Assembly (NCBI GenBank): GCA_017302855.1
Contig: JAFLBY010000002.1
Location: 1 to 59,331, forward strand
DNA: 59,331 nt
Direction: 5' to 3'
Origin: Candidatus Kapaibacterium sp.
Lineage (GTDB): Bacteria > Bacteroidota > Ignavibacteria > Kapaibacteriales > UBA961
The notes under the pieces are model-generated. The model worked only from the letters and a program-made list of their open reading frames with translations. It was not told the DNA's origin and ran no database searches. Position 1 is the stretch's first letter, and each line of letters opens with the position of its first letter. Both the position numbers and the translations under genes were made by a program. This document shows, in pieces, positions 9,537-15,742 of this stretch.

Positions 9537-9581
9537 TGTTTTCACAACGAACTCGTTCCCTCAATCATTGCTTTTACCATA

Positions 9582-9615
9582 CGAATGTCCGCTTTTTTTC
9601 AAAAGCGGACATTCG
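9582..9615. terminator. Strong hairpin terminator after the STAS gene
   Basis: CGAATGTCCGCTTTT-TTTC-AAAAGCGGACATTCG forms a 15-bp stem. The T/A tracts are embedded in the stem, so it could act in both directions. Confidence 0.7.
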
Positions 9616-9858
9616 TGTTCATACACAACATTGTTTAGAAATCCCCCTATACTTTACCCGATGATTACAGCACTTGTACATACGTTCTAGATGTGTCAGG
9701 ATATAAAAACAAAAACAACGAAAACCACTTTATTTCCTGTATAGTATAAGAAATTCACATTTGTTTGTGTAGATAAACTTTTGTAGTTTGGGGGAAAGAC
9801 GGTTAAAAAGTATGCTTCTTAACAAAGAAACTTTTATTTTTGCAACAACCTTTATGAT

Positions 9859-10176
9859 ATGATAAAACAACTAATGTAAAGTTGAGTTTTTAGAAGAAGA
9901 TTCAGAGTTTCTTGAGAGTCTTGAAGAAAGAGTAAGAGATAATAGCATTTACAGCATTACAAAAGCAAGGTTTTCAAACAATAAAGAACTTTTCAAAAAA
10001 TTGACAGATGAAATTTGGGAGTTTAGAATACTGATTAATAAGACCTAGTTCGGAATTTTTGCTTTTTAATCAATCAGCGAAGATGAACACGGTTGTCATA
10101 TCTGATAAAGAAAACGGATAAAACTCCACTAAGTGACTTGGATAAAGTAAGGCGTTTGGAAAAAAAACTATTTTGA
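9859..10176 (+). pseudogene. Degraded HigB/Gp49-like (RelE superfamily) toxin gene
   Basis: Manual translation gives MIKQLM*, then in another frame VEFLEEDSEFLESLEERVRD...LTDEIWEFRILINKT*, then ..FGIFAF.., then LIKKTDKTPLSDLDKVRRLEKKLF*. All pieces fit the Gp49/HigB pattern (iwElR, yRifaF, KKt.ktP) but are split by stops and frameshifts. Confidence 0.6.
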
Positions 10177-10194
10177 ACGTATAGACAAGAAAAA

Positions 10195-10520
10195 ATGAGG
10201 AAGCAAGGATTAACAACTTATAGCATAGATGACATTGCCGACAAACACATCGGTAAACCTGGGACAGTAAAACGTGAATCTTTTGAGAATGAATTACGGC
10301 TTGGCTTACTTAGGGGGCAATCAGACAAGTACATTTAAAGCGTAACTTGACCTAAGAAGAGATTGGACGACTTGTAGGTGTTCAGAAAGTCCAAATTTCA
10401 AAACTTGAGAATAGCTTGACAGACGCAAGATTTGATACAATAATTAAGGTGTTTAAGGCACTGAATGCAAAGATACATTTCAATGTGGAGTTGCTTAATC
10501 AGTCAGTAAAACTCTCTTAA
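10195..10520 (+). pseudogene. Degraded XRE-family HTH antitoxin (HigA-like)
   Basis: MRKQGLTTYSIDDIADKHIGKPGTVKRESFENELRLGLL.. is interrupted. It resumes in another frame as ..EEIGRLVGVQKVQISKLENSLTDARFDTIIKVFKALNAKIHFNVELL, a typical HTH_XRE core. Confidence 0.6.
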
Positions 10521-10722
10521 AAGAAAAACTCTTTTCGTTAGGAACATATGCAATGCTTATAATGTAAGTATGTTAATAAAATGTCTTTTGAGCTTATAAC
10601 TAAGCAAATACAGCTTTCGTTACGCCTTACACTAAAATTGACAAGTGTGAGAAAATAAACTAGAAAAAAAATGAGTCAACAGAAGAGAGCATTAATACAC
10701 GTATTTTCTAACTTTGTAATTT

Positions 10723-12291
10723 ATGACAAACTATATAAATATCGAACCTTTCAACCAAGAACTGCCAAGCGAGTTTGCAGACAGATTAGGTATTTATTAC
10801 ACTCAACAAGTAACAACTAAACATAAAAAGGATAACGGACAGTTCTTTACACCAATAAAAATTGCCAGATTAATGGCTTCGTATTGCGACTTAAGAAAGA
10901 ATACAATCCGAGTTTTAGACCCAGGCTGTGGGACCGCTATTCTAACTTGTGCTTTAATAGAATATTTAATTGAGAAACAACGTGACATATACTTTGTTGA
11001 TTTAGTCGCCTATGAAACTGATCCAAACTTAATTTCATCGTCACAAAAGACGCTAGCATATTTAAAAGCATGGCTTTTAGAAAAGGGAATTAGATTTCAA
11101 TATTTAATTCACGTTCACGATTTTATTTTAGATAATTCAAATGCACTAAGAGAAGAGTACCAAGAAGAAAAGTTTGACTTAATAATTTCAAACCCACCCT
11201 ATTTTAAACTTGCAAAAGATGATAAAAAAACTATTGCAGCTAAAGAGTTAGTAAACGGACAACCCAATATCTACTCAATTTTTATGGGAATTTCTGCAAA
11301 ACTACTTTCCCAAAATGGTGAGTTAATTTTTATTACACCAAGAAGCTTTGCTTCAGGTAGCTATTTTAAAGTATTCAGAGAACTGTTTTTCAACACCGTT
11401 CAAATTGACAAAATACATTTGTTCAACTCACGTAAAGACACATTCAACCGTGACAACATTTTACAAGAAACTGTTGTAATTAAAGCAATCAGAGAAGAAA
11501 TCAATCCAAAAAAAAATGTGCGTGTTTCTTCAAGTGTAGGAATTAAAGACATTTTTGAACCTACGATAAAATATTTCATTTCTGCTGATCTCATTGACCT
11601 AAATTCAAAAGAGAAAATTTTGCATTTGCCGACAAACGATAAAGAAGAAACCATTTTAAATTTAGTTTCTACTTGGGAAAATGTGTTGAGAGATTTCAAT
11701 ATAAAAATTTCAACAGGTCCTGTGGTTGCATTTCGAGCTTTGGATTATATCCAAAAACATTACGAAAATGGTACGGTCTTTTTAGCTCCTTTGTTTTGGC
11801 TTCACAACGTAAGAAAAATGATTCTGGAGTGGCCAAATGAATTCAAAGAAAAAGGTCAATTCATTAGAATAGAAAGCGGTTCAAAATCTTTGGTGATTCC
11901 GAACAAGAACTACATTCTTTTAAGGCGATTTAGTAGCAAAGACGATAAGTGTAGACTAATTGCAGCTCCATACTTCTGCAACTATGTAAAAGCAGACTTT
12001 ATCGGTATTGAAAACAAAGTAAACTATATATACAGGAAAGACGGACATTTAGACCGAAACGAAGTAGTTGGGCTTTGTGCATTACTCAACAGCGAATTGT
12101 TTGACGCTTACTTTCAAATTTTCAACGGCAACGTAAATGTAAGTGCAACGGAACTCAGGGAAATGAGATTTCCAAGATTAGAATACATAAAAGAAATTGG
12201 AAATAAAATCATATTATCTAATAACTACGCAATGGATAATGTGAACAATATTGTAAATAATTTAATAGGGGTCAAACAAATTGTAAAGTAA
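10723..12291 (+). CDS. Gamma-class N6-adenine DNA methyltransferase (Eco57I/PstI-M-like)
   Basis: Motif order is FFTP (X), VLDPGCGTAIL (I), then IISNPPYF (IV), followed by a ~300-aa C-terminal target-recognition region. Confidence 0.85.
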   Translation: MTNYINIEPFNQELPSEFADRLGIYYTQQVTTKHKKDNGQFFTPIKIARLMASYCDLRKNTIRVLDPGCGTAILTCALIEYLIEKQRDIYFVDLVAYETDPNLISSSQKTLAYLKAWLLEKGIRFQYLIHVHDFILDNSNALREEYQEEKFDLIISNPPYFKLAKDDKKTIAAKELVNGQPNIYSIFMGISAKLLSQNGELIFITPRSFASGSYFKVFRELFFNTVQIDKIHLFNSRKDTFNRDNILQETVVIKAIREEINPKKNVRVSSSVGIKDIFEPTIKYFISADLIDLNSKEKILHLPTNDKEETILNLVSTWENVLRDFNIKISTGPVVAFRALDYIQKHYENGTVFLAPLFWLHNVRKMILEWPNEFKEKGQFIRIESGSKSLVIPNKNYILLRRFSSKDDKCRLIAAPYFCNYVKADFIGIENKVNYIYRKDGHLDRNEVVGLCALLNSELFDAYFQIFNGNVNVSATELREMRFPRLEYIKEIGNKIILSNNYAMDNVNNIVNNLIGVKQIVK

Positions 12292-12294
12292 ATT

Positions 12295-13428
12295 ATGAAT
12301 TTAGAAGAAAAAAATAAAGAGCTACAGATAGAAATTGAGAATGTCAGAAAAGAGATTAAAACTGATAACTTTAGCATGGCAATCCGTGAACTTGTTCAAG
12401 TTTACAGAGATGGTGACTTAGAACTTTCCCCAGCCTATCAAAGACTTTTTAGATGGTCTGATGAAACAAAAACAAAATTTATCGAGTCTATTTTAATGGG
12501 GATTCCGACACCACCTATATTTATTGCTCAGAAAAAGGGATCAAAATGGACTATTGTTGATGGATTACAAAGGGTATCAACAATATTGCAATTGATGAAA
12601 TTAATTGAAGTTAGAGACACCGAGGGAAACCTAAAGCCTCCGTTTAGATTTAAATCGGCTGAAAAGCTCCCTTCAATTGAGGACTTAGATTGGCTATCTC
12701 TTAACGAAGATGCTCAAAGAATAATTAAAATGACAAAAATTGACTTGAAAATAATCCTTATTGAAGACAACATTGAAGCTCAATATGAATTATTCACAAG
12801 ATTAAATACAGGTTCGGTTTCATTACAAGCACAAGAGATTAGAAATTGTTTAATAATAATGCTTGATGAGAATTTTTACAACAAAATCAATGACTTAAAA
12901 ACTATGCCTGAGTATAGAAACTGTATTGATTTAACAGAGAATAAAAATGAAATAGAATTTCCAATGGAACTAATACTTCGTTATTTTATTTTAAAACACA
13001 ATAAAATAAATTTTAGTAATTACAACTTATCAAGTGATTTACTTAGCTTATTTATAGATAAAGAAACTGCTAAAATAATTAAAGATAAAACTTTTGTGAT
13101 TGAAGATGAGATAAATGTTTTTAAACGAGTTTTTGTGTTGTTAGATGAAGTGTTGAACAAAAATACTTTTAGAAAATTCAATGCCGTTAAAGATGAATTC
13201 GAAGGTCCATTTTTACAAACAGCTTTTGAAGCAATTCTTCCCGGGTTAGCAAAAAACATTGATTACTATGAAGGTCAAGGTAAAGAAATTTTGAAACCAA
13301 AAATTATTCAAATGTATTTAGAAGAAGACTATATCAATGCTGCAAAAAGAGGAAACAAAGCATTGCCTAGAATACAAAGTATGATTTCATTTTCCAACCT
13401 ATATTTTAGCGTCAATGGAGATAGCTAA
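12295..13428 (+). CDS. DUF262 (ParB/GmrSD N-terminal-like) protein without a DUF1524 nuclease domain
   Basis: SPAYQRLFRWSDETKTKFIESILMGIPTPPIFI...WTIVDGLQRVST carries the DGQQR-type motif. The C-terminal half is helical with no His-Me/HNH motif. Confidence 0.8.
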   Translation: MNLEEKNKELQIEIENVRKEIKTDNFSMAIRELVQVYRDGDLELSPAYQRLFRWSDETKTKFIESILMGIPTPPIFIAQKKGSKWTIVDGLQRVSTILQLMKLIEVRDTEGNLKPPFRFKSAEKLPSIEDLDWLSLNEDAQRIIKMTKIDLKIILIEDNIEAQYELFTRLNTGSVSLQAQEIRNCLIIMLDENFYNKINDLKTMPEYRNCIDLTENKNEIEFPMELILRYFILKHNKINFSNYNLSSDLLSLFIDKETAKIIKDKTFVIEDEINVFKRVFVLLDEVLNKNTFRKFNAVKDEFEGPFLQTAFEAILPGLAKNIDYYEGQGKEILKPKIIQMYLEEDYINAAKRGNKALPRIQSMISFSNLYFSVNGDS

Positions 13429-14188
13429 ACTTGAAGATCTTCTATATGAGGATTGGACTTGGCGAAAGACTGAAATTTCAGAACTAATCATTTTAGCGGA
13501 GACAGAAAAAACAAATGTTCTATTAAAATCAGTCATTTTGCTTTTATATGCTCATTGGGAAGGTTACATAAAAAAATCAAGTAAAACTTATTTAAAATTT
13601 ATCTCCGACAACCAAATTGAAGCTTCTAAACTGACAGATAACTTTAAGTATATTGCTTTAAAAGGGTTGTCCAAGGAAGTATTTAATTCTAGAGATACTT
13701 TGACTACAAATAACGAGCTAAAATTTATTAATAAGTTTAATCAAATAAATGAGACGACGATTGACAGATTTATTAGAATCGATTTAGAGAACGAAAGAGA
13801 TAAATCGATTATTGACACACAAGACAACCTTACTCCTGCTGTTTTTAGGAAAATTCTTGATATAATTGGTTTGAAATATTTAAATGGATATGAGTCAAAA
13901 AAAACACATATTGAACATAATCTAGTAGATCACAGAAATTCTATAGGTCACGGTAACAAGCGACTATCAAGTAATGAAGATTTTCTTTTAGAAATAGCTT
14001 CATTAAAAGAACTTAGAGATATAATTTTTTTGATAATCGAAAATTTCAGAGACGATATCATTCAGTTTGCAAAAGAAGGTTATTACCTAAGAGATAATTT
14101 AGGGTTGATAGAGAATTATTGTACAAGTAAAGAAGATATAATTTCTAGAGAGTTAAACGCTATACAATCAAGATACAACAATGAATAA
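13415..14188 (+). CDS. HEPN-like nuclease (MAE_28990/RiboL-PSP-like family)
   Basis: LLYAHWEGYIKK lies near the N-terminus and HRNSIGHG supplies an Rx4H HEPN catalytic motif. It overlaps the DUF262 gene by 14 nt and the REase gene by 8 nt. Confidence 0.7.
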   Translation: MEIAKLEDLLYEDWTWRKTEISELIILAETEKTNVLLKSVILLLYAHWEGYIKKSSKTYLKFISDNQIEASKLTDNFKYIALKGLSKEVFNSRDTLTTNNELKFINKFNQINETTIDRFIRIDLENERDKSIIDTQDNLTPAVFRKILDIIGLKYLNGYESKKTHIEHNLVDHRNSIGHGNKRLSSNEDFLLEIASLKELRDIIFLIIENFRDDIIQFAKEGYYLRDNLGLIENYCTSKEDIISRELNAIQSRYNNE

Positions 14189-15116
14189 ACTAGAAGAAGC
14201 ACGAGAGATACTTAAAGCATTAGGACTTCCGCCAGCACAATACAATGAAATGGCGGCATTGACACTTTTAGCGGTCTGCAACATTAAGGAAAATGATAGT
14301 TGGTCAAATGCAACTCGTCAGAGTTTAGGAGTTACAAAAGGAATCATGACTTTTGTAAACGACAACTACGGAAAATTTTATGCACCAAATACTAGAGAAA
14401 CATTCAGAAGGCAAGTGCTTCACCAATTTGTTCAAGCACGAGTTGTTGACTACAACCCCGACAAACCTGATTTGCCAGTAAACAGCCCTAATGCTCATTA
14501 CGCTTTAACAAAGGAAGTTTTGGAAGTTGTAAAAACATACAAAACCAAAAATTGGAATAAGGCTTTGAAAAATTTCATTGACACAGTTGGCAAACTTTCA
14601 GAAGTATATTTGAAAGAAAGAGAACTAAATCAAATTCCAGTTACGCTTCAAAACGGAGAAACAATCAAACTCTCCGCAGGAAAACATAATGAAGTTCAAG
14701 CAGCAATAGTTGAACAGTTTGCCCCACGTTTTGCAAATGGTGGAACACTTCTATACTTAGGCGACACAGCAAAAAAAGACTTATTCGTTGACGGAAAGGG
14801 GCTACAAGATTTAGGGATTCCAATTGACCAACACAGCAAACTACCTGATGTTGTAATCTATGATAACAAACGAAAATGGTTGTTTTTAATTGAAGCCGTA
14901 ACTTCTCATGGGCCGGTTTCTCCGAAACGACTGTTAGAACTGGAAGACTTTTTGAAAAACTGTAAAGTCGGAAAAATATATGTGACGGCTTTCCCTGATA
15001 TGACAGAATTTAAAAAACATTCAAACAATATAGCTTGGGAGACAGAAGTTTGGTTGATGGAAGTTCCCGACCATATGATACATTTTAACGGAGACAGATT
15101 TATTGGACCAAGATAG
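14181..15116 (+). CDS. BsuBI/PstI-family type II restriction endonuclease
   Basis: The N-terminus EAREILKALGLPPAQYNEMAALTLLAV and the C-terminus PDVVIYDNKRKWLFLIEAVTSHGPVSPKR...VTAFPD...IAWETEVWLMEVPDHMIHFNGDRFIGP match my recollection of the BsuBI_PstI_RE family consensus. Confidence 0.75.
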   Translation: MNKLEEAREILKALGLPPAQYNEMAALTLLAVCNIKENDSWSNATRQSLGVTKGIMTFVNDNYGKFYAPNTRETFRRQVLHQFVQARVVDYNPDKPDLPVNSPNAHYALTKEVLEVVKTYKTKNWNKALKNFIDTVGKLSEVYLKERELNQIPVTLQNGETIKLSAGKHNEVQAAIVEQFAPRFANGGTLLYLGDTAKKDLFVDGKGLQDLGIPIDQHSKLPDVVIYDNKRKWLFLIEAVTSHGPVSPKRLLELEDFLKNCKVGKIYVTAFPDMTEFKKHSNNIAWETEVWLMEVPDHMIHFNGDRFIGPR

Positions 15117-15124
15117 CGCAATCT

Positions 15125-15742
15125 TTGGGTGGGCAAAAACGGAAATGTCTATTTGGGAAAATTGTCGAAACAGACCTACGTGTCTGCCCTGAAATGATTT
15201 TGAACGATGCCGGTAAAATGGTTGAAAAATGGTATTATGTATTGGAACAAAAATTCCCTGATATTAAAATAATGCCCAATCATTTCCATTGTATCATAGA
15301 GAATGTCGGGGCAATAGGGGCTGACCTGCGTGTCCGCCCCATTACCAATGATCCTGATAAACACATCAACAATCATCCTGATATATACATCAACAATCAT
15401 CCTGATATATACATCAACAATCATCCTGATAAACACATCAACAATCATCCTGATATATACATCAACAATGATTCTAATAAATACATCAACAATGATTCTA
15501 ATAAAACAGAGGGCGAACACATCGGTTCGCCCCTATATCGTGTCGTGCAATGGTTTAAAACAATGACAACCAATGAATATATACGTGGGGTGAAAAATTT
15601 GGGTTGGCAACCATTTGATGGCAAATTGTGGCAACGCAATTATTATGAACACATTATCCGCAATGAAAAATCCTATCATAACATTACAAATTACATAATC
15701 AATAACCCTGCTAAATGGGCAGAAGATACATTTTATGGCTAA
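15125..15742 (+). mobile_element. IS200/RAYT-like Y1 (HUH) transposase, apparently 5'-truncated
   Basis: HUH motif MPNHFHCII. The C-terminal segment SPLYRVVQWFKTMTTNEYIR...KLWQRNYYEHIIRNEKSY carries the catalytic Tyr. The usual N-terminal ~30 aa (..YDYS..YF.T.CT) are missing, and the ORF only opens at a TTG right after the REase stop. Confidence 0.65.
15341..15508 (+). repeat. In-frame 24-bp minisatellite, 7 units, inside the transposase gene
   Basis: ATCAACAATCATCCTGATATATAC and variants encode ITNDPDKH / INNHPDIY x2 / INNHPDKH / INNHPDIY / INNDSNKY / INNDSNKT. Confidence 0.95.

Follow-up and report, generated by a model that had tools for sequence, protein, structure and literature searches.

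The locus described here occupies positions 10723 to 15116 of contig JAFLBY010000002.1 from Candidatus Kapaibacterium sp.; the contig stretch that was analyzed, 59,331 nucleotides in all, is referred to as the window. Four + strand genes make up the locus, and its subject of interest is the pair of genes lodged between the two partners of a type II restriction-modification (R-M) system. Gene 1, M (10723..12291, 522 amino acids), encodes a gamma-class N6-adenine DNA methyltransferase of the Eco57I/N6_Mtase type. Gene 2, D (12295..13428, 377 amino acids), encodes a DUF262/ParB-superfamily NTPase-like protein, a putative DNA sensor. Gene 3, H (13415..14188, 257 amino acids), encodes a HEPN protein of the MAE_28990/RiboL-PSP clade, a putative RNase effector. 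Gene 4, R (14181..15116, 311 amino acids), encodes a type II restriction endonuclease of the BsuBI/PstI/SdaI family.

The genes are closely spaced. M and D are separated by a 3-nt gap (12292-12294), D and H overlap by 14 nt (13415..13428, + strand), and H and R overlap by 8 nt (14181-14188, aATGAaTAA). Given this gap and these overlaps, M-D-H-R likely forms a single tightly packed transcription unit; a terminator scan found no terminator-like site on the + strand inside it. Scans of the window for sigma-70 promoters and for terminators gave background levels and are uninformative, the consensus used being that of sigma-70 and the close relatives of the locus being mostly Bacteroidota. Promoters of Bacteroidota differ from the sigma-70 consensus.

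The four proteins

Profile searches with M give the Pfam families Eco57I (2e-18) and N6_Mtase (7e-12) and the PADLOC model MTase_II PDLC03227 (2e-114). The M translation carries FFTP (FxxP), then DPGCGTA, then NPPY. R covers the whole of two Pfam models, BsuBI_PstI_RE_N (1e-53), a helix-turn-helix (HTH) domain, and BsuBI_PstI_RE (4e-62), the catalytic domain; it also matches PADLOC REase_II at 8e-114. Its alignment with the SdaI structure 2IXS is full-length (1e-58, or 3e-86 using a profile). The R translation contains LFLIEAVTSHGPVSPKR as well as AWETEVW...PDHMIHFNGDRFIGP, and the residues P222-D223, E238, K249, and R250, whose catalytic role is putative, are among those invariant across 10 aligned R proteins, that of the window included. 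On these matches, M and R are a classical BsuBI/PstI/SdaI-family type II R-M pair, with R of the PD-(D/E)XK type. The window shares with this family both R domains, end to end, and a gamma-class adenine methylase M. The units of the family are described as M plus R (PMC9035990, PMC5341023), and 74 of the 80 loci surveyed below consist of M plus R only, whereas the window has two extra genes between them.

A further PADLOC model labelled 'MTase_II', PDLC03359, has 840 positions, of which M matches 14-515 and R matches 531-838. Since both proteins match it, this is taken to be a model of a fused M.R form, a form that is seen in loci L013, L018, L024, and L112 and on pBCK802. Avoidance of CTGCAG was considered as a clue to PstI specificity and was rejected as uninformative: the window holds 2 sites against 10.7 expected, but this is only the 19th of 64 palindromes. 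Palindromes are generally depleted, and CTGCAG is without depletion in the other host loci.

The D protein matches GmrSD_N/DUF262 at 8e-23 over residues 31-187 only. Its C-terminal half has no match in the Pfam profile search, and no DUF1524/HNH domain was found in the protein, in agreement with the preliminary description of this DNA, which had remarked that the DUF262 protein lacks DUF1524. Two ParB/DUF262 motifs, QRxxRW and DGxQR, are conserved without exception in 17 D homologues; in the window protein the sequence DGLQRVST is present. Two PADLOC models match D near full length, NsnA at 5e-51 and PD-T4-2_A at 5e-30, NsnA being the higher score; residues 31-360 of D align to positions 41-350 of the 363 in the PD-T4-2_A profile. 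The AlphaFold2 (AF2) model of D (predicted local distance difference test, pLDDT, 82.5) has an α/β N-domain and a helical C-domain. This agrees with the layout described for NsnA, that is, ParB-DUF262 followed by a helical C-terminal 'ParBDB' (PMC12065111). The closest PDB neighbors of the model, all with weak E-values, are the ParB N-domain 5K5D, BrxU 7P9K, and SspE 6JIV. Sequence searches of the PDB with D and with H gave no significant match.

H matches HEPN_MAE_28990 at 2e-31 (110 bits, cut-off 26.8) and HEPN_RiboL-PSP at 1e-23 (85 bits, cut-off 28.4). The stretches YAHWEGY and HRNSIGHG are present in its translation, and within them R174-x4-H179 (RNSIGHG) and H47-W-E-G50 are invariant across 15 H homologues with identity down to 36%. 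The homologues are solo proteins of ~255 amino acids. The HEPN family of H comprises ~2,000 clusters at 50% identity in an exhaustive profile search, only 72 of them at 1e-30, and no HEPN relative was found in the phage GenBank collection. The AF2 model of H is all-helical (pLDDT 88), and Foldseek with this confident model against the PDB returned nothing with an E below 0.9, an HEPN toxin appearing only at rank 45. PADLOC gave no match for H at E up to 0.1, and its PD-T4-2_B model gave none for seven H relatives at E up to 0.01. The attempt to bridge from H to PD-T4-2_B by way of distant HEPN relatives with PADLOC was accordingly dropped. H, whose Rx4H motif is intact, is a putative RNase effector.

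To summarize, all four family calls of the preliminary description hold in the profile searches, that is, gene 1 as Eco57I-type, gene 2 as DUF262, gene 3 as HEPN, and gene 4 as BsuBI/PstI. The coordinates, gap, and overlaps it gave for the four + strand genes are exact, and every motif that it quoted, both gene 4 segments included, is in the translations. In PADLOC, genes 1 and 4 are recognized as MTase_II and REase_II, gene 2 by NsnA and PD-T4-2_A, and gene 3 by no model.

Gene orders and partners of the DUF262-HEPN pair

A forward survey, starting from H, drew on Pfam-annotated contigs and on a scan of species-representative genomes, which were annotated with the four window proteins and Pfam. 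It comprises 31 informative distinct loci with H of ≥37% identity, L085 and L091 having been added from the reverse survey described below. The window order, M-D-H-R, is found in 10 loci. The order M-R-D-H is found in another 10, one with an insertion sequence (IS) between R and D and one with a split R. A fused M.R (~830 amino acids) followed by D-H occurs in four loci, and D-H upstream of M-R in one. Four loci have M-D-H without a BsuBI-type R, and tblastn found no R remnants in them. One locus has M, a BsuBI N-domain fused to an AAA_15 ATPase, and X-D-H, and one more has D-H-M nested within a type III-like system of the Snf2/DUF4391/Mod/Res kind. Between them, the 31 loci show six or more gene orders. 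An intact BsuBI-type R occurs in 25, and all 31 have an Eco57I/N6_Mtase-type methyltransferase in the cluster.

The pair that the preliminary description had noticed between M and R does recur there. M-D-H-R is seen in nine loci besides the window, in assemblies labelled Kaistella, Kapaibacteriota, Aureispira, Pedobacter, Sediminibacterium, and Agrobacterium, with unrelated flanking genes wherever flanks were checked. Because of this recurrence amid unrelated flanks, the four-gene order is more than a chance arrangement. BsuBI/PstI R-M is the preferred host of the D-H subfamily to which the window pair belongs. Below 31% H identity, pBCK802 of B. cereus carries fused M.R-D-H and a Psychrobacter plasmid carries D-H convergent with R-M, which indicates that the link of D-H to BsuBI-type R-M crosses phyla.

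The preliminary description took the pair as a module embedded in a type II R-M system. This has to be amended, as the conserved partner is the adenine methyltransferase: R is missing from several of the forward loci, and M is always present. The same partner is met at greater distance. In a set of 37 loci from IMG/VR with H at 26-41% identity, D immediately precedes H in 37/37, and DUF262 is directly upstream of H in all loci examined that have that flank. A DNA methyltransferase is directly downstream of H in 21/34 of these distant loci, 13 of the enzymes being of N6_Mtase and 8 of N6_N4_Mtase type. D-to-H is the invariant core, and 'D-H plus some DNA adenine methyltransferase' is a recurrent triad. 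The distant pairs (L113-L149) adjoin a CI/LexA-type S24 repressor in 16 loci and an integrase in 8, which is the usual position of a prophage or satellite defense hot spot; one of them adjoins a P4-type Psu gene. The D-H pair was also sought in complete E. coli genomes, the queries being DNA from Cedecea and from IMG/VR, and no match came up.

Several of the surveyed loci have features of their own. In Flavobacterium johnsoniae CI04 (L015 3-5503, the same as L016), one Eco57I-type methyltransferase lies between two DUF262-HEPN pairs, one divergent (HEPN_RiboL-PSP type, 223 amino acids) and one co-directional, and there is no restriction endonuclease. L023 3029-15723, from a metagenome-assembled genome of Synergistaceae, has a trio of DUF262, HEPN, and Eco57I-type methyltransferase within a system of Snf2 helicase, DUF4391, N6_N4 Mod, and Res, which is type III-like; L025 resembles it but is decayed. 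In Sphingobacterium sp. SGL-16 (L153 1554-3880), a BsuBI/PstI N-terminal HTH joined to an AAA_15/SMC-type ATPase replaces the endonuclease between M and D-H and is followed by an unannotated protein of 224 amino acids; this looks like a domain swap of the catalytic half of R. A GmrSD_N-only protein of 640-758 amino acids is found just upstream of M-D-H-R in L003 2279-4201 (- strand) and L110 1-3202, followed in L110 by a PIN_8 protein, and this second GmrSD_N protein may represent another pairing of DUF262 with an RNase in the same island. R is split into two open reading frames (ORFs) in L017 3985-4941, DUF262 is split into two ORFs in L151 3885-5011, and an IS1595 transposase separates R from D in L154 3281-3952, all signs of decay or disruption in some copies.

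The reverse survey took 80 metagenome loci picked by R similarity alone (50-92% identity). M and R abut directly in 68 and are fused in 6. Nearly all relatives in this R-M family lack D-H and show no further controller gene, whether next to M and R or in between. Where the sequence continues for 2 kb or more beyond R, as it does downstream in 48 loci, D-H is found in only 2. The closest R relatives of the window, L026 (92%), L027 (90%), and L028 (88%), are plain M-R loci. The short overlap of M with R in the plain relatives L027-L029 (cATGAgTAA) has the same form as the H/R overlap of the window. These figures support the notion in the preliminary description of a type II R-M system carrying an extra DUF262-HEPN pair, the pair being an insertion or add-on. 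Nearest-neighbor comparisons of R and of M show D-H-bearing and plain loci interspersed; it follows that the R-M pair is autonomous and that D-H is an accessory repeatedly gained or lost. The dependency is one-sided. M-R works without D-H in most relatives, whereas D-H is almost never found without an adjoining adenine methyltransferase.

An insertion scar in M was also looked for. The M of the window has an unusual C-terminus (12262-12291, NNLIGVKQIVK), where plain and D-H-bearing relatives both end in an (E/Q)LFELExI-type sequence. The idea was given up, since other M-D-H-R loci retain the plain-type tail and there is no common scar.

Two more of these 48 reverse-survey loci, L043 6502-8522 and L083 3368-5415, have a plain BsuBI-type M-R and, after it, a distant DUF262 whose gene overlaps that of a RelA/SpoT-like (toxSAS-type) protein; the latter, ~325 amino acids long, takes the place of the HEPN protein. 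The effector slot beside DUF262 is swappable, accepting HEPN or RelA/SpoT-like proteins. The same DUF262-RelA/SpoT-like arrangement is seen in L103 1776-2942, a locus that is cut.

Pairwise identities were correlated over 15 and then 21 complete loci; the locus pairs are phylogenetically non-independent, so that p-values are only indicative. The correlation is 0.86 for M with R and 0.83 for D with H, and 0.32-0.59 across modules, with the same outcome at the domain level. The target recognition domain (TRD) of M and the N-domain of R give r = 0.86. A site-specific coupling of D to M was considered as well and is unsupported, the C-terminal domain of D, presumed to bind DNA, correlating with the M TRD at r = 0.57 and the N-terminal domain no worse, at 0.54. 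High correlation within modules and low correlation across them mean that M-R and D-H have been shuffled relative to each other and yet kept together. The locus combines two co-evolving modules within a single operon, with D-H inserted between M and R.

We read the locus, with moderate confidence, as a type II R-M system with an inserted, methyltransferase-linked arm that resembles PD-T4-2 and would serve as a backup or in abortive infection. The known systems that bear on this reading are compared next.

Comparison with characterized systems

PD-T4-2, from E. coli ECOR65, came out of a functional selection (Vassallo et al. 2022) and is listed as 'DUF262, HEPN' (PMC9519451); it is likewise tabulated as DUF262 plus HEPN in PMC10952713. 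It guards against T4 from a 1.8-kb clone, and its deletion sensitizes the native strain (PMC9519451). Its B protein matches HEPN_RiboL-PSP (97.8%) and HEPN_MAE_28990 (96.9%) in HHpred (PMC9519451, Tables S1-S3). Like the window pair, PD-T4-2 has a DUF262 protein that lacks DUF1524 and, after it, a small HEPN protein; architecture and Pfam families are the same in both. The two differ in size, PD-T4-2 being ~1.54 kb with B-protein HHpred matches at residues 7-163 (~165 amino acids), against 257 amino acids for H. They differ also in setting, in that PD-T4-2 works without a methyltransferase while the window pair sits between a type II M and R. Of the two PD-T4-2 models, PD-T4-2_A recognizes D and PD-T4-2_B does not recognize H, and D scores higher on NsnA. 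Judged by these models, the window D-H is PD-T4-2-like in architecture and not a close member. The literature searched held no report of the trigger or mechanism of DUF262-HEPN pairs of the PD-T4-2 type.

What is already known, then, is that DUF262 plus HEPN is a kind of anti-phage system, as with PD-T4-2, and that HEPN, ParB, and methylase genes form a triad. The latter linkage was catalogued in 2013 as one table line (Biol Direct 8:15). The catalogue has the same family triad as the window, without the R-M family, gene orders, asymmetry, module shuffling, or an experiment. New here are the four-gene type II composite, the variety of gene orders, the dependency in one direction only, and the shuffling of the modules. 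The preliminary description held that M-DUF262-HEPN-R has no defined function. This stands for the four-gene operon, no experimental characterization of which was found in the literature, but it needs qualification for the DUF262-HEPN pair, which is already a validated kind.

PrrC, encoded in EcoprrI, was the comparison offered in the preliminary description. The genetic logic is the same, as PrrC is an NTPase-controlled, HEPN-type RNase whose gene lies within an R-M operon and which presumably serves as a backup, and D-H likewise lies between M and R. The proteins are different. In PrrC a single polypeptide carries the ABC-type ATPase head, the host is type I, and embedding is almost exclusively in type I R-M (bioRxiv 10.1101/2024.01.29.577857), whereas the window has a separate ParB/DUF262 protein, a type II host, and a different HEPN family. 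Neither profile searches nor PADLOC gave a family match to a PrrC-type ABC ATPase or anticodon-nuclease domain in genes 2 or 3, so that the comparison holds as an analogy only.

The analogy can be extended to a PrrC-type guard. D-H would be held latent by binding M, or M and R; an anti-restriction factor (a DNA mimic, S-adenosylmethionine lyase, or Stp-like peptide) would disable R-M, and the released H would cleave tRNA. The tight packing with overlapping reading frames and the constancy of M as a neighbor even without R fit such a guard, and HEPN nucleases controlled through protein-protein interaction are known (bioRxiv 10.64898/2026.02.22.705581). A conserved interface between D-H and M is hard to square, however, with partner methyltransferases that fall into three or more unrelated families or size classes: Eco57I-type of ~500 amino acids, N6_Mtase of ~420, and N6_N4_Mtase of ~245. 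Nor do the M proteins of D-H-bearing loci form a clade separate from those of plain loci, and the lack of a match to PrrC domains also counts against a guard. We consider this explanation unlikely.

A third group of systems uses DUF262 as a reader of DNA modification that licenses a nuclease, as established for SspE, GmrSD, and BrxU (PMC10952713, PMC12065111). SspE is the restriction arm of the SspABCD modification system and BrxU is embedded in BREX, and both are among the structural neighbors of D. In GmrSD, BrxU, and SspE the nuclease is a fused DUF1524 HNH DNase; D, in contrast, lacks DUF1524 and its effector is a separate HEPN protein. The modification is phosphorothioate or modified cytosine in those systems and adenine methylation in the window. 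With BrxU/BREX, too, the resemblance is confined to logic. Menshen (NsnABC) is closest to D by score. D is NsnA-like (5e-51) and shares the ParB-DUF262 plus helical C-terminal layout, and both Menshen and the DUF262-HEPN group have polymorphic RNase-type effectors. Menshen requires the ABC ATPase NsnB and the inPIN effector NsnC, whereas the genes after D in the window are HEPN and R, with no ATPase in the unit.

Relatives of this kind also act as regulators. DndB, a ParB/DUF262 relative, regulates Dnd modification (PMC12065111, PMC12839542), and D-H could by the same token be a DndB-like tuner of methylation or R expression, or else a toxin-like addiction pair that stabilizes the cassette after transfer. 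The surroundings of the cassette are another point in favor of such a role. GC content is 28-36% over ~9-17 kb around the cassette, against 39-46% on either side. Just upstream, at 9865-10520, is a decayed toxin-antitoxin pair, namely, a Gp49/HigB-like remnant (weak, E = 0.0075) and an XRE-type HTH antitoxin (HTH_3, 5e-6) broken by stops or a frameshift, and no ORF of ≥60 amino acids is found in 9537-10722. Just downstream, at 15125-15742, is the remnant of a REP-associated tyrosine transposase (RAYT/IS200-like), of which only ~60 C-terminal residues match; it is interrupted by a tandem repeat (~15330-15480) encoding NNHPDIYI/NNHPDKHI units. Rfam and tRNA scans of the window found nothing. The low-GC islet, decayed toxin-antitoxin pair, and transposase remnant are consistent with horizontal acquisition of the cassette and its neighbors. 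A regulatory or addiction role is nevertheless very improbable: D-H is absent from almost all relatives of the R-M family, which are free of other controller genes too, the catalytic Rx4H motif of the HEPN protein is invariant, and the architecturally equivalent PD-T4-2 is a demonstrated anti-phage system.

Possible modes of action and their implications

In the reading that we favor, an R-M system with a methyltransferase-linked, PD-T4-2-like arm, the parts would work as follows. M would methylate the host target sites, marking self, and R would cut unmethylated incoming DNA as the first line. D would bind DNA, read its state, and use NTP binding or hydrolysis to license its partner, as the DUF262 of SspE, GmrSD, and BrxU does. 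H, predicted to be an RNase rather than a DNase, would cleave cellular RNA (tRNA, mRNA, or rRNA) and stop translation. D-H would then be a second line, of the abortive-infection type, against phages that escape R.

The persistence of methyltransferases of three families as partners suggests that D-H depends on host methylation, for self-tolerance or for triggering, and not on a particular M protein. Such dependence on the methylation mark is favored over a PrrC-like guard because at least three methyltransferase families partner D-H and because R is dispensable.

Several points weigh against this reading. The literature yielded no experiment on the four-gene operon or on any M-linked D-H, and the RNase activity, target, and trigger are what we infer. 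The likeness to PD-T4-2 is one of architecture and Pfam family, drawn through models and descriptions, and the PD-T4-2_B model misses H and seven of its relatives. PD-T4-2 is active in E. coli K-12 from its 1.8-kb clone, which is free of a methyltransferase, and is not reported to be toxic there (PMC9519451). Corynebacterium pCC2 carries D-H (H below 31% identity) with no annotated methyltransferase nearby, and 13/34 distant loci are without a methyltransferase directly downstream of H. Orphan methylases are frequent in prophages, which could inflate the adjacency in the distant set. Finally, the co-variation (0.57 vs. 0.54) gives no sign that D would read the same sequence as M.

These points bear on a simpler account, in which an R-M system and an autonomous PD-T4-2-like abortive-infection pair are independent defenses sharing an operon, nested for co-transfer or co-expression, with no crosstalk and with methylation irrelevant to D-H. 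That PD-T4-2 works without a methyltransferase shows that a DUF262-HEPN pair can be autonomous. The shuffling of D-H against M-R (cross-module r 0.32-0.59) and the gain and loss of D-H among close M-R relatives are what such an account leads one to expect. Nesting is common in modification-based systems, and 96.7% of the genes embedded there run in the same direction as the host system (bioRxiv 10.1101/2024.01.29.577857). What keeps the account alive is that PD-T4-2 is autonomous, that the pair on pCC2 stands alone, and that D shows no co-variation with the M TRD. Independent modules should, on the other hand, have varied neighbors, yet an Eco57I-type adenine methyltransferase is beside D-H in 31/31 loci of the close subfamily. 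The methyltransferase is kept in the four R-less loci and in the D-H-M trio inside a type III-like system, distant pairs recruit other methyltransferase families, and the linkage to BsuBI-type R-M persists below 31% HEPN identity in other phyla. On balance, we regard independence as possible, though less probable than not.

A more far-reaching version of the methylation-linked reading is put forward tentatively, by analogy, and we rate it as rather doubtful. M may be the self-marker for two restriction arms, R cutting unmethylated DNA and DUF262 reading the N6-methyladenine (m6A) state to license the HEPN RNase. Unmethylated or aberrant DNA would trigger RNA cleavage and abortive infection. 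M-D-H without R would then be a stand-alone 'RNA-cutting restriction-modification' system, whose effector slot would accept other translation-targeting proteins, e.g., RelA/SpoT-like ones. The analogy used for m6A reading is the DUF262 domain of SspE, which responds to phosphorothioate-modified DNA (PMC10952713, PMC12065111).

A survey of defenses embedded in other defenses dealt with Hma, BREX, DISARM, and type I R-M and did not take in type II (bioRxiv 10.1101/2024.01.29.577857). With the present locus, such 'defense embedded in defense' is seen in a minimal type II system of two genes as well. The locus is of value mainly because it offers a way into the question of what triggers DUF262-HEPN systems. 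Pairs of the PD-T4-2 type are validated anti-phage systems, and the methylase asymmetry gives a testable handle on how self and non-self are sensed. Should the HEPN arm be gated by methylation, the locus would be an R-M system in which RNA, not DNA, is what the second effector cuts.

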